A stretch of DNA of 64,000 nt from Escherichia coli (GTDB lineage: Bacteria > Pseudomonadota > Gammaproteobacteria > Enterobacterales > Enterobacteriaceae). The stretch lies in assembly GCF_030384885.1 (NCBI RefSeq), contig NZ_CP128613.1. One strand, 5' to 3'. The position numbers and the translations under genes were made by a program. Below are positions 5,161 to 36,379 of this stretch, in pieces. Each line of letters opens with the position of its first letter. Position 1 is the stretch's first letter. The notes under the pieces were generated by a model. That model saw only the letters and a list, made by a program, of their open reading frames with translations. It had not been told where the DNA came from and ran no database searches.

Positions 5161-6024
5161 TTAGCTTGCGACGGCCATTCCCACGGTCATATGCAAACCA
5201 TAGAATACGCCACGACCGATTAATTCCCCTGCCAGAAGCAGAATGAATGATACGGAAAGTAGCGGAACCGCAGGCTGATAACCTTTTAGCTGTGGGGCAA
5301 TCCACAAGCACAGGGCAACAGCCAAAAGCACGATCCGCCAGGACATCAGCGCACCATAGTCCGGCACCAGCGCTGCGGCCTGCTGCACAGAGCTATGAAT
5401 AGTCGCCAGCTCTGCGCCCTGCATCACTGACACCACGCCACTCACTACCAGGGCCAGTACAGAAATAGCTGGCAGCAGACGCATCGCCCAGCCATCGACG
5501 CCAGCCAGACTCAGTAACAGGTAACCCAGTAACGGGCCGCCCATGAACATCGTCAGGAAGAAGCCCATCGGTGTCCAGATGCTGTACCAGGTGGGTACGG
5601 TATCGATGCTGTTATAGACACGCACCATCATCCAGACAAAGACTACGCCAAGAACCATCGTCACCACCAGCCACAGCGTACGCAATGCCGGTGACAGCTT
5701 TTTCAGCATTGCCAGTAACCAGCCGATGCCACCAACAGCAAAAAAGATCGAACCGCTGGCGATTTCGTTACTGAGTGCTGAAGCCCCTACCCGGTTGAGC
5801 GAGTTAAAGGCGCGCATCGGTGAACCAAGATGAAGCATAGAGGCGATAAAGCCAATCCCCATCAGCACCCATAAGCCAAACATGCAGGCGATAACACGCT
5901 GCTGGGCTTCTGCTCGCAGGTCGCCTTTGAGCAGCGCCAAAGCCAGAACGATAAAACCACCTGCTACACATTGCCCGAAGACCGTGAAGATCATCAGCGG
6001 CCATTCATGCCATCCACTTCCCAT
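5161..6024 (-). CDS. dmsC: DMSO reductase membrane anchor subunit
   Basis: ORF track 5161..6087; start set to ATG 6024 (MGSGWHEWPLMIF...) with GGAGG upstream and 4-bp overlap with dmsB stop; 287 aa. Confidence 0.9.
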   Translation of the reverse strand: MGSGWHEWPLMIFTVFGQCVAGGFIVLALALLKGDLRAEAQQRVIACMFGLWVLMGIGFIASMLHLGSPMRAFNSLNRVGASALSNEIASGSIFFAVGGIGWLLAMLKKLSPALRTLWLVVTMVLGVVFVWMMVRVYNSIDTVPTWYSIWTPMGFFLTMFMGGPLLGYLLLSLAGVDGWAMRLLPAISVLALVVSGVVSVMQGAELATIHSSVQQAAALVPDYGALMSWRIVLLAVALCLWIAPQLKGYQPAVPLLSVSFILLLAGELIGRGVFYGLHMTVGMAVAS

Positions 6025-9098: not shown

Positions 9099-9268
9099 AA
9101 TGGCTCACTCAAGCTTGCTCACGATTGATTCCAGTAACAAACCGTATTGTGTAATTATTTCTATAGCAGTTCGCTATATAGGCTTGTATATATCGAATGA
9201 TTTGAAAATCAAAGAGATAGGTAGATTTTCACTCGAAAGTAGTATTACGTGTTAGTGAGGAGTAATTA

Positions 9269-9282
9269 TTGTTCGGTATCAA
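9269..9282 (-). promoter_or_regulatory. FNR box upstream of dmsA
   Basis: Minus-strand reading TTGATaccgAACAA matches the TTGAT-N4-ATCAA FNR consensus; position verified against the overlapping ORF-track frame. Confidence 0.7.
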
Positions 9283-9290
9283 AGGGAGAC

Positions 9291-9316
9291 AAAAAAAGCG
9301 CCCGCAGGCGCTTTTT
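9291..9316 (-). terminator. serS rho-independent terminator (bidirectional hairpin)
   Basis: A-run, GCGCC-cgca-GGCGC stem-loop, T-run immediately downstream of the serS stop. Confidence 0.7.
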
Positions 9317-9336
9317 AGATTCAGAAAAATTGGGTA

Positions 9337-33876: not shown

Positions 33877-34301
33877 ATCCCCTCCAGAAATATGTGACTT
33901 ATCCTTTACGCTGGCAGTATAACGGGAAAGGCCTTGCTAATACGTGATGACATCACATTTAAGCATGGCAAATGTCTGAAAAATGAGCGAATAATCGCGT
34001 TATACTCCCTCTTGCTGATAAGTCTGCAAAAACAACAAAATCAAATAATTAGCATGATAAATTATTTTTTATTACGCCTAAAGGATTAAATCTTTTGCTT
34101 GCACTACACTGTCAATCAGACAAATGACTATATGGGGCAACCCGCTGTTGCCCTAAATCAAATTTACTGGATTTATTTATCTGGTGAATGACTCGCCTTC
34201 GTTTTTAAAATAGCCGCGCATTATTTCCGTCGTCACTTTTTTACGACGACCCTATAAAACGACCATATTTTTCACAGGGTCAATTTTTAATTGAGGTGGA
34301 T

Positions 34302-34997
34302 ATGTTCAGAAAATTAGCAGCTGAATGTTTTGGTACTTTCTGGCTTGTTTTTGGTGGCTGTGGTAGTGCCGTACTGGCCGCAGGCTTCCCGGAATTAGGT
34401 ATTGGTTTTACCGGCGTGGCGCTGGCATTCGGTTTAACCGTTCTGACGATGGCCTTCGCTGTTGGTCATATTTCTGGTGGTCATTTTAACCCGGCGGTCA
34501 CTATTGGCTTATGGGCTGGCGGACGTTTTCCGGCAAAAGAAGTCGTTGGCTACGTAATTGCCCAGGTTGTCGGCGGTATTGTTGCAGCGGCGCTGCTGTA
34601 TTTAATTGCCAGTGGTAAAACGGGATTTGACGCGGTAGCCAGCGGTTTTGCTTCTAACGGTTATGGCGAGCATTCACCAGGCGGTTATTCCATGCTTTCC
34701 GCGCTGGTAGTTGAACTGGTATTGAGTGCAGGTTTCTTGCTGGTGATCCACGGCGCAACCGACAAATTCGCTCCGGCGGGTTTTGCACCAATTGCCATTG
34801 GTCTGGCATTAACGCTGATTCACTTAATCAGTATTCCGGTGACTAACACTTCCGTTAACCCGGCGCGCAGTACTGCGGTTGCCATCTTCCAGGGCGGCTG
34901 GGCGTTAGAACAACTGTGGTTCTTCTGGGTGGTGCCAATTGTCGGCGGCATTATCGGTGGTCTGATTTACCGGACTCTGCTGGAAAAACGTAATTAA
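34302..34997 (+). CDS. aqpZ: Aquaporin Z
   Basis: ORF track 34296..34997 (GTG); start set to ATG 34302 with GAGGTGG upstream; two NPA motifs; 231 aa. Confidence 0.95.
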
Positions 34998-35007
34998 TTA
35001 ACGCAGA

Positions 35008-35036
35008 AGGCCTGGCGCAATGTCAGGCCTTTTTTA
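35008..35036 (+). terminator. aqpZ rho-independent terminator
   Basis: AGGCCTG-gcgcaatgt-CAGGCCT followed by a T-run. Coordinates approximate. Confidence 0.7.
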
Positions 35037-35094
35037 AATATATTGATTCATCTTCCTGTTGCGCTCCTTGATGTGTTAAGCCACATATAGTCAC

Positions 35095-35310
35095 TGGCGC
35101 AGGGAGCGCGCAGGGGGCGGCCAATCGCCGCCGCCCCCTGCACCCCCGGGCTCTGGCGAACAAAATCGCCGCTGCGCGGTGCCCTCGACTTATCCCTTGC
35201 GGCTACCGGGTCGGGCGCGAGGTAACATCCCGGTAAAACGCGCCCTCAGCCCACATCCATGTGGGCTGCCCCGGCCTTCAGGGAACACCTCGGCGATTTT
35301 GACGCCACCA
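35095..35310. other. GC-rich structured intergenic element (perfect 11-bp GC hairpin plus long-range inverted repeat)
   Basis: CAGGGGGCGGC-caatcgcc-GCCGCCCCCTG hairpin; CAAAATCGCCG pairs with CGGCGATTTTG about 120 bp away; local GC far above neighbouring intergenic DNA. Confidence 0.5.
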
Positions 35311-35479
35311 ACACCGGTGAGGTTTGTAATTAAAGCGCAAGAATATCTTTAAATGAAAATGAATACCCTACCGATCCTTATGCATAACATTTCCTTTTAA
35401 TTGCAACTTTACTCGTCCTTCTGCTTTCAGTAGTGTGTCATCGCGCATTTCGAATCTTCTTTGCAAGGACTGGGTTTTC

Positions 35480-36379
35480 ATGTTTTCTGGGCTGTTAATC
35501 ATTCTGGTTCCCCTGATTGTGGGTTACCTCATTCCGCTTCGCCAAAAAGCTGCATTAAAGGTTATTAATCAGCTATTAAGCTGGATGGTTTACCTTATTC
35601 TCTTTTTTATGGGTATCAGTCTGGCGTTTCTCGATAACCTCGCCAGTAACCTGTTGGCGATTCTGCATTATTCCGCCGTCAGTATTACCGTTATTTTACT
35701 GTGTAATATTGCCGCCCTGATGTGGCTGGAGCGAGGCCTACCGTGGCGCAACCACCATCAGCAAGAAAAACTCCCGTCGCGTATTGCGATGGCGCTGGAG
35801 TCCCTCAAGCTCTGCGGTGTGGTGGTGATTGGCTTTGCTATTGGCCTTAGCGGATTAGGTTTCTTACAACACGCTACGGAAGCCAGCGAATACACGTTAA
35901 TTCTGCTACTTTTCCTCGTCGGTATTCAGTTGCGCAATAATGGCATGACCTTAAAGCAGATTGTCCTTAATCGCCGGGGAATGATTGTCGCCGTGGTGGT
36001 GGTTGCCAGTTCATTAATTGGTGGTTTAATTAACGCCTTTATTCTTGATCTTCCCATCAATACCGCGCTGGCAATGGCCTCCGGTTTCGGCTGGTATTCT
36101 CTTTCCGGTATTTTATTGACCGAATCTTTTGGTCCGGTAATCGGGAGCGCGGCGTTTTTTAATGATTTGGCCCGTGAGCTGATTGCTATTATGTTGATCC
36201 CTGGGCTGATTCGCCGTAGCCGCTCGACTGCACTGGGCTTATGCGGTGCGACGTCGATGGATTTCACCCTGCCCGTTCTTCAACGTACTGGCGGGCTGGA
36301 TATGGTCCCGGCGGCGATTGTTCACGGTTTTATTCTTAGCCTGTTAGTGCCGATCCTCATCGCCTTTTTCTCTGCATAA
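35480..36379 (+). CDS. lysO: Lysine exporter LysO
   Basis: ORF track 35435..36379; start set to ATG 35480 (MFSGLLIILVPLIVGYL...), 299 aa. Confidence 0.9.
   Translation: MFSGLLIILVPLIVGYLIPLRQKAALKVINQLLSWMVYLILFFMGISLAFLDNLASNLLAILHYSAVSITVILLCNIAALMWLERGLPWRNHHQQEKLPSRIAMALESLKLCGVVVIGFAIGLSGLGFLQHATEASEYTLILLLFLVGIQLRNNGMTLKQIVLNRRGMIVAVVVVASSLIGGLINAFILDLPINTALAMASGFGWYSLSGILLTESFGPVIGSAAFFNDLARELIAIMLIPGLIRRSRSTALGLCGATSMDFTLPVLQRTGGLDMVPAAIVHGFILSLLVPILIAFFSA

Follow-up and report, generated by a model that had tools for sequence, protein, structure and literature searches.

Several intergenic sites in Escherichia coli carry a GC-rich repeat known as TRIP1, a name that comes from Rudd (1999) and Li et al. 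(2024; PMC10888264). The TRIP1a copy, of 266 bp, is placed 70 bp past the stop codon of aqpZ and 158 bp ahead of the start of ybjE/lysO; TRIP1c follows yohI/dusC, TRIP1b follows putP and is without an internal 125 bp, and TRIP1d is found between alx and sstT (PMC10888264). Pham et al. (PMC10287960, PMC11194060) have named a 222-bp core a replication risk sequence (RRS); this is RRS-lysO, which they pair with RRS-dusC. Here we analyze a GC-rich block between aqpZ and lysO that an earlier note, made from the sequence alone, had singled out in a 64,000-nucleotide stretch of the E. coli contig NZ_CP128613.1 (the 64-kb “window”). The block is TRIP1a/RRS-lysO. The element itself is already known, and nothing is new about its existence; the additions made here are modest and concern a link to the TwoAYGGAY motif, a conservation centered on hairpins, and natural alleles that are inverted or disrupted. 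That the element was recognized in a scan of raw sequence also means that such a scan can detect real functional DNA structure.

The replication phenotype of RRS has been worked out in K-12, where a stretch of some 2 kb of single-stranded DNA on the lagging strand, beginning at each RRS, becomes loaded with RecA and SSB (PMC10287960, PMC11194060). According to the RRS papers, deletion of an RRS abolishes the RecA/SSB peak, and an ectopic RRS makes a new peak when its G-rich strand is the lagging-strand template. The same papers report that RRS blocks polymerases in vitro, that a double deletion could be made only with a compensating amplification, and that deleting or inverting both copies changes supercoiling across the genome. 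In a single-molecule assay, gaps formed at nearly every replisome passage in the native orientation and at about 66% with the complementary strand (Kusi-Appauh et al., 2026 preprint). Only two bacterial sequences described so far program a replication gap, this element and the Neisseria gonorrhoeae pilE G-quadruplex (G4), which the RRS authors name as the only other folded G-rich strand in bacteria known to program a replication-associated gap or nick. The pilE sequence is unrelated to RRS, however, and serves pilin antigenic variation. It also requires transcription of a small RNA.

Other repeats resemble TRIP1 in more general ways. REP/BIME, ERIC/IRU, Box C and RSA elements are GC-rich (REP, Box C) or palindromic intergenic repeats that follow genes and can form stem-loops, but TRIP1 is longer and its copy number far lower. 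The TwoAYGGAY motif (RF01731; Weinberg et al., 2010), whose alignment is multi-copy in Psychromonas ingrahamii, is like TRIP1 a multi-copy intergenic element of gamma-proteobacteria. CsrA binding has been proposed for its hairpins (PMC4333381). It is filed as an RNA, whereas the effect of TRIP1/RRS was demonstrated at the DNA level.

Identity of the aqpZ-lysO element

The position of the element in the window fits TRIP1a as published: aqpZ ends at 34997, the element occupies ~35058-35322 and the ATG of lysO is at 35481, 158 bp downstream of the element's end. Over 314 nt, the window copy shares 94.6% identity with the aqpZ-lysO copy of K-12, and with the dusC copy of K-12 it shares 93.9%. Its match to the putP copy (TRIP1b) falls into two pieces, with the inner 125 bp skipped, and the alx-sstT spacer of strain JL05 has a paralogue with similarity over ~270 bp. 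Locus, length (~266 bp), G+C content (62-65% reported, 66% here) and the dusC, putP and alx-sstT paralogues are all shared with TRIP1. No difference is essential, and the mismatches to the K-12 copy fall mostly in the left arm and the flanks. With RRS-lysO the element shares the same 222-bp core and the published G4-forming 20-mer, GGGGGTGCAGGGGGCGGCGG, which has a single exact match in the window (0 in 100 shuffles) and a G4Hunter score of 1.84 on the minus strand.

The earlier note had described a block of roughly 200 bp with a GC content well above that of the surrounding intergenic DNA. The composition is as described: G+C reaches 69.4% at 35095-35310, whereas the intergenic flanks have 40% and 36% and the entire window 50.6%. 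The extent was right for one part of the element, as the 216 bp nearly coincide with the RRS core, and too small for the full repeat unit, whose ends (GTTGCGCTCC ... ACGCCACCAACACCGGTG) were set by alignment with K-12 TRIP1a, TRIP1c, TRIP1b and TRIP1d and with other Escherichia copies. The suggestion that the block might belong to an intergenic repeat family other than REP was borne out. The REP-derived Rfam families naRNA4 and ES036 have no match in 34950-35520 even at E <= 10, with matches elsewhere, and the copy-number check that had been proposed shows the element to be multi-copy in E. coli: a 251-nt query finds 17,762 places, and all complete genomes but one (5,425 of 5,426) have at least one of them (1-8 per genome, median 3). 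Up to 9 per genome appear in a more sensitive search, and the element's left part and its right part are both multi-copy. The 152-bp RSA (BEE95) repeat was the first suspicion because the closing inverted repeat described below spans ~153 bp; a search of the literature pointed to TRIP1 and RRS, and RSA was set aside on that basis.

Replication geometry and a probable DNA-level mechanism

Together with the published work, these results make it very likely that the element acts at the DNA level, as TRIP1a/RRS-lysO, by inducing a lagging-strand gap through its fold. Gap formation and the effects on topology come from the literature; identity, copy number, fold, selection on the fold and replication orientation come from this analysis, and for the copy in this strain we infer the same behavior as in K-12. 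The two full copies of K-12, at lysO and dusC, are mutually inverted (915,013-915,281 and 2,229,122-2,229,376) and lie 675 kb and 638 kb away on opposite sides of dif (1,590,750-1,590,777), in keeping with an RRS pair in which either copy is some 650 kb from dif. In the window, GC skew on the plus strand is -0.037 (se 0.006) and negative throughout the 64 kb. The G-rich minus strand is therefore the lagging-strand template, as published, an assignment that rests on skew and not on the mapped ori and dif of this strain. For the dispersed copies, the skew of the 3-14-kb flanks gave mixed signs with large errors.

A gap could arise at the element in a few steps. Unwinding at the fork would expose the lagging-strand template, which would fold into a very stable multi-hairpin structure, with the G-rich strand possibly adding a G4. 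The lagging-strand polymerase would halt at this fold and re-prime downstream, and a transient gap of up to ~2 kb would remain and be filled by SSB and RecA. In the published proposal, the lysO copy and the inverted dusC copy across dif would serve as topological relief valves that flank the Ter domain.

A hairpin fold conserved on both strands

The inverted repeats that the earlier note had seen are present, two of them longer than stated. The perfect GC hairpin (hairpin A; coordinates of this and other features are collected in Table 1) has a stem of 12 bp where 11 had been noted, and the CCCACAT hairpin (hairpin C) has 10 bp where 7 had been noted. The long inverted repeat, which forms the closing stem (P1) of an inner module, is a perfect 11 bp (CAAAATCGCCG / CGGCGATTTTG, 35161-35171 / 35291-35301) with arms 119 nt apart, lengthened by GGCG/CGCC at 35155-35158 / 35304-35307. 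No perfect 12-bp hairpin appeared in 500 dinucleotide-preserving shuffles, where the maximum was 10. Folded as single-stranded DNA, the 265-nt element has z = -5.6 on the minus strand and -5.1 on the plus strand relative to shuffles.

Conservation of the fold was assessed in an alignment of 25 long-form copies from Escherichia spp., Pseudocitrobacter, Klebsiella pneumoniae, K. aerogenes, K. variicola and Citrobacter freundii, four genera in all. RNAalifold predicts 64 pairs in 13 helices, which make up the GC hairpin, the long closing stem and a small hairpin, along with an extended helix of irregular form and a pair of neighboring terminal hairpins. Across these copies the fold is kept, with 97.6% of cells paired. 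Double-sided changes occur in 26 of the 64 pairs; column shuffles give 10.2 +/- 1.7 such pairs, with 0 of 500 as high as observed, and controls with slid partners give 2-7. They are spread over the fold: hairpin A has compensatory double changes in 7 of its 12 pairs (99% of cells paired), the P1 helices (4 and 5) in 4 pairs (94-99% paired), the small hairpin (helix 6) in 3 of 4 pairs (100% paired) and hairpin C (helix 13) in 5 of 9, while the inner pair of hairpin B changes from A-T to G-C in 12 of the 25 copies. In TRIP1d, for example, CCCACAT/ATGTGGG has become CGCGCAT/ATGCGCG (within it, CCCAC/GTGGG has become CGCGC/GCGCG), and in Escherichia sp. E1V33 GGGGGCGGC/GCCGCCCCC has become GGGGGAGGA/TCCTCCCCC.

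The kind of pairing is informative about the level at which the structure matters. A selected RNA usually tolerates G-U pairs on its own strand. Here only 10 of ~1,600 cells are wobble (G-T) pairs when read on the plus strand, and 14 when read on the minus strand, less than 1% on either; this is unusual for a selected RNA, and it counts against the note's suggestion of a non-coding RNA as the principal reading of the block. The near absence of wobble pairs and the lack of strand bias fit a structure whose importance lies at the DNA level, in either strand. Such strand-symmetric pairing agrees with the gaps seen on the complementary strand in the 2026 single-molecule work. Some caution is in order: template switching within palindromes can also produce paired changes without selection.

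These results also shift the emphasis relative to the RRS papers (PMC10287960, PMC11194060 and the preprint of Kusi-Appauh et al.). Those papers stress the G4 and “two” elements, whereas the conserved, co-varying feature found here is a set of hairpins on both strands, and the family is multi-copy in Klebsiella. Hairpin A shares sequence with the published G4 20-mer, and an arm of the hairpin would compete with quadruplex formation in the overlapping 20-mer.

A probable relationship to the TwoAYGGAY motif

An Rfam scan of the element, as the earlier note had proposed, returned no family at the gathering score. A permissive scan gave a full-length match to TwoAYGGAY on the minus strand at 35161-35307, with 27.7 bits against a gathering score of 43; other weak matches (cow-rumen-3, mir-207, isrB and others) were far under their thresholds and were taken as noise. 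The same full-length match to RF01731 recurs below threshold in every copy tested: 30.9 bits for TRIP1c, 36.6 for TRIP1d and 31.0 for the Pseudocitrobacter copy. TRIP1 and TwoAYGGAY have in common a long P1, two adjacent hairpins, an AUGGAU loop (found in the loop region of hairpin C on the minus strand), AG between the hairpins and CGR after the second. The other loop, that of hairpin B, reads on the minus strand ACCGGGAUGU in the window and ACAGGGAUGU in K-12; its CGGGAU (window) and AGGGAU (K-12) are off the strict motif, and in Klebsiella it is often ACGGAC or AUGGAC, which is strict AYGGAY. TRIP1 differs in adding an outer module, consisting of the left-arm fold-back and the GC hairpin with the G4, that lies outside RF01731.

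Pseudocitrobacter provides a bridge between the two. About 70 nt from its TRIP1 copy, and in the opposite orientation, lies a second element (E2) that scores 49.2 bits against RF01731, above threshold (L009 ~2140-2430, module 2179-2336; L033 ~5600-5840, module 5631-5788). It represents a second repeat family built on the same plan as TRIP1, with AAGGGGGGCGCGGTTGCCCCCCTT as the GC hairpin, GGAAATCGG/CCGATTTCC as the closing stem and a pair of AYGGAY hairpins. A full-length collinear alignment of E2 with TRIP1 scores 57, compared with 8.5 +/- 3.9 for shuffles, and a covariance model (R1) built from TRIP1 inner modules only finds E2 at 65.7 bits (E = 1.3e-13). Homology is thus probable: the inner ~150 nt of TRIP1/RRS would be a diverged relative of TwoAYGGAY. 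The TRIP1 paper (PMC10888264) and the 2024 RRS paper (PMC11194060) contain no mention of Rfam, AYGGAY, CsrA or hairpins, and none of the papers that a TwoAYGGAY search listed deals with RRS or TRIP1. Because the papers are silent on it, the link is apparently unreported, with the reservation that literature coverage was incomplete. Four results could be of use for work on RRS: the conservation of hairpins rather than G-tracts, the natural variant alleles, the dozen or so copies in Klebsiella, and the tie between the inner module and the unexplained TwoAYGGAY.

An alternative is that TRIP1 works as an RNA. A minus-strand TwoAYGGAY-type RNA might bind CsrA through its two A-N-GGA-Y loops, or the element might stabilize or terminate the 3′ untranslated region of the upstream gene. 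The sub-threshold matches in all tested copies, the conserved AG and CGR junction residues and AUGGAU loop, and the recovery of a bona fide TwoAYGGAY by the TRIP1 covariance model all speak for such a role, as does the proposal that TwoAYGGAY hairpins are CsrA sites. The CsrA consensus from SELEX is RUACARGGAUGU, and the K-12 loop UUACAGGGAUGU fits 11 of its 12 positions. All five E. coli loci moreover lie 38-96 bp after a stop codon, which suggests either a preference for insertion at the 3′ ends of genes or a secondary, terminator-like role. We nevertheless consider action as an RNA improbable. Beyond the almost purely Watson-Crick covariation, the TwoAYGGAY sense is antisense to local transcription because aqpZ and lysO are both on the plus strand; orientation relative to neighboring genes varies between loci and strains; aqpZ has a separate terminator hairpin ahead of the element (35007-35031); a scan of 34950-35520 found no promoter-like site; and no tested TRIP1 copy reaches the gathering score of RF01731.

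If the inner module is indeed a diverged TwoAYGGAY, it is conceivable, though doubtful, that the TwoAYGGAY elements of gut Clostridia and gamma-proteobacteria are themselves DNA fold-back repeats, which would stall lagging-strand synthesis and program gaps or would spread as single-stranded DNA hairpins. If this were true, RRS would be a domesticated pair drawn from the TwoAYGGAY family and not a unique enterobacterial invention.

Dispersed copies and natural alleles

While the fold and the geometry argue for a programmed lagging-strand gap, several observations weigh against it. The first concerns the G4. On the minus strand G4Hunter is 1.76-1.84 in most copies, and several copies from K. aerogenes, K. 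variicola and Citrobacter score ~1.0 or less; in these, hairpin A is kept by compensatory changes. A natural double change that breaks the G-tracts and preserves the stem is GAGGG/CCCTC in K. aerogenes (L040). The conserved feature is the hairpin and not the G-tracts.

The second concerns orientation and integrity at the locus. Of 5,426 complete E. coli genomes, 4,028 align collinearly with a 681-nt aqpZ-TRIP1a-lysO query; in ~26%, most of the non-collinear set, only the flanks of the query align, and three of these genomes were inspected. This fraction agrees with the published share of “reverse” TRIP1a copies, 1,255 of 4,703 (Li et al., PMC10888264). In an O157:H7 genome (L050) the long form is inverted, with altered immediate flanks and without the separate aqpZ terminator hairpin, and UPEC132 (L051) has a short inverted form. 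In an inverted element the G-rich strand would be the leading-strand template, so a strict requirement of RRS for one orientation does not sit easily with these alleles. Other alleles are interrupted: EC17GD31 (L052 1859/3244) has a 1.4-kb element of the insertion sequence (IS) family IS110 in hairpin B, at window position ~35228. Its transposase matches NF033542 at 358 bits, and the IS110 family is RNA-guided. The junction occurs in 174 of 5,426 genomes, SMS-3-5, IAI39 and CE10 among them, and these insertions are natural disruptions of RRS-lysO. Alleles that are inverted, shortened or broken by an IS could take the place of constructed RRS mutants.

The third is number. One K. pneumoniae chromosome (CP125156.1, L038) has 13 TRIP1 places in unrelated intergenic regions, and because of these many dispersed copies the family looks like a spreading repeat rather than a two-copy landmark.

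The same observations bear on what else the element might be. The earlier note had raised a structured 5′ leader of lysO and, with doubts of its own, a resemblance to retron msr-msd organization. The element does lie upstream of lysO on the gene's strand, and its long-range inverted repeat recalls the a1/a2 repeats of retrons. However, the same element stands at unrelated intergenic sites (dusC-yohP, putP-efeU, alx-sstT and many Klebsiella loci), has, in the three non-collinear genomes that were inspected, been turned around or shortened with respect to lysO or interrupted by an IS, and ends 158 bp short of the start codon. Rfam gave no match to a riboswitch, leader or retron family, and there is no reverse transcriptase open reading frame nearby, the neighbors being ybjD, aqpZ, lysO and hcp. 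The multi-locus distribution and variable orientation refute both the leader and the retron, including a riboswitch, and hardly any likelihood is left to them. More generally, the leader and non-coding RNA suggestions fall because the element is a known multi-copy intergenic repeat, which the note itself had named as a finding that would speak against them; the known repeat nonetheless has a documented function at the DNA level.

A more serious alternative, which we rate as rather unlikely, is that TRIP1 is a selfish intergenic repeat similar to a miniature inverted-repeat transposable element, moved by an unknown mobilization that recognizes folded ends or hairpins, with no host function at aqpZ-lysO or an incidental one. 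Its dispersal over five E. coli loci and 13 places in one K. pneumoniae chromosome, its variable copy number (1-9 per E. coli genome), the coexistence of long and short forms, and the occurrence of both orientations at one locus with differing immediate flanks would all be expected of such a repeat, as would the two related elements side by side in Pseudocitrobacter and the multi-copy relative in Psychromonas. Against it, the aligned element ends have neither terminal inverted repeats nor clear target-site duplications, no transposase is associated with the copies, and a phage search found no TRIP1 copy. Recent mobility must also be low because each E. coli copy is locus-fixed across thousands of genomes, and a host role is favored by the published effects of deletion, which a purely selfish repeat would not explain, and by the symmetric positions around dif. 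The two accounts are compatible: a selfish repeat may describe the origin of the family.

Some details of the survey qualify the distribution. The Klebsiella and Citrobacter copies were taken from chromosomes filed as plasmids in PLSDB; many of the TRIP1-bearing “plasmids” there are chromosomes or chromosome fragments. A scan of genome contigs with the right-end 19-mer GCRATTTTRACGCCACCAA, a pattern too strict for Klebsiella and Citrobacter, found only Escherichia, Pseudocitrobacter and chance or contaminant matches. TRIP1 sequence on short, low-coverage contigs of Pseudobutyrivibrio xylanivorans (L007, 432 nt) and Bacillus sp. (L031, 583 nt) is most likely E. coli contamination of the assemblies. 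Among the individual loci, K-12 TRIP1c lies between the convergent genes yohP and dusC (L004 2983-3439), and pZ1323HEC0475-2 (L003) groups with the inverted alleles, having other immediate flanks and no separate aqpZ terminator (compared with window 34998-35440).

Features of the element and its surroundings

The element lies in a 483-bp spacer bordered by aqpZ (34296-34997, plus strand) and lysO (plus strand). Its parts are listed in Table 1. One unit of the tandem 11-nt repeat is absent from some copies (L027, pZ1323), and the inner ~125-bp segment is flanked by an imperfect direct repeat, CCCCGGGCTCTGGCGAACA / CCCCGGCCTTCAGGGAACA.

Table 1. Features of the aqpZ-lysO element, in window positions (plus-strand numbering).
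Feature	Position	Strand	Basis or remark
Full TRIP1a repeat unit, ~266 bp	~35058..35322	- (strand of the G-rich “RRS-G4”)	Paralogue alignment
222-bp core, RRS-lysO	~35092..35313	-	Near-identity block, K-12 TRIP1a vs TRIP1c
Left-arm fold-back GCGCTCCTTG / CAGGGAGCGC around a small ATGTG/CACAT hairpin	35061..35109		Inverted-repeat scan, DNA folds
Tandem 11-nt direct repeat GCGCAGGGAGC / GCGCAGGGGGC, after the left-arm fold-back	35097-35118		
Hairpin A, perfect 12-bp GC stem, 8-nt loop, GCAGGGGGCGGC / GCCGCCCCCTGC	35110-35121 / 35130-35141		100% complementary
Published RRS G4-forming 20-mer GGGGGTGCAGGGGGCGGCGG	35128..35147	-	Exact match (sequence: PMC11194060)
Inner ~125-bp segment, missing from short forms (TRIP1b at putP; short inverted lysO allele)	35146..35270		
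TwoAYGGAY-like module: closing stem and two adjacent hairpins, A-N-GGA-Y loops	35152..35309	-	
Closing stem P1 of inner module, 5′ arm	35155..35171		
Small hairpin CCGC-TGC-GCGG	35169..35179		Helix 6
Hairpin B, GGGCGCG ... CGCGCCC	35213..35245	-	
Hairpin C, perfect 10 bp, 2-nt loop, CAGCCCACAT / ATGTGGGCTG	35247-35256 / 35259-35268	-	
Closing stem P1, 3′ arm	35291..35307		

The scan of 34950-35520 for promoters also covered terminators and found none; it missed the aqpZ terminator hairpin because the 9-nt loop of that hairpin exceeds the loop limit of the scan. The literature was also searched for a lysO transcription start or an ArgP site that could be placed relative to the element, with no usable result. 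An imperfect direct repeat (GTAATTAATTAACGCAGAAG / GTAATTAAAGCGCAAG, at 34990-35009 and 35326-35341) encloses the aqpZ terminator and the entire TRIP1a, and could be an insertion remnant or a recombination site.

Elsewhere in the window, the segment 44001-48000 has a G+C content of 42%, compared with ~51% for the window, and may be horizontally acquired DNA. Two Rfam matches at gathering level are unrelated to the element: the small RNA STnc130 at 9189-9323 on the plus strand (139.5 bits) and the REP-related ES036/CssrF at 52985-53027 on the minus strand (38.8 bits).

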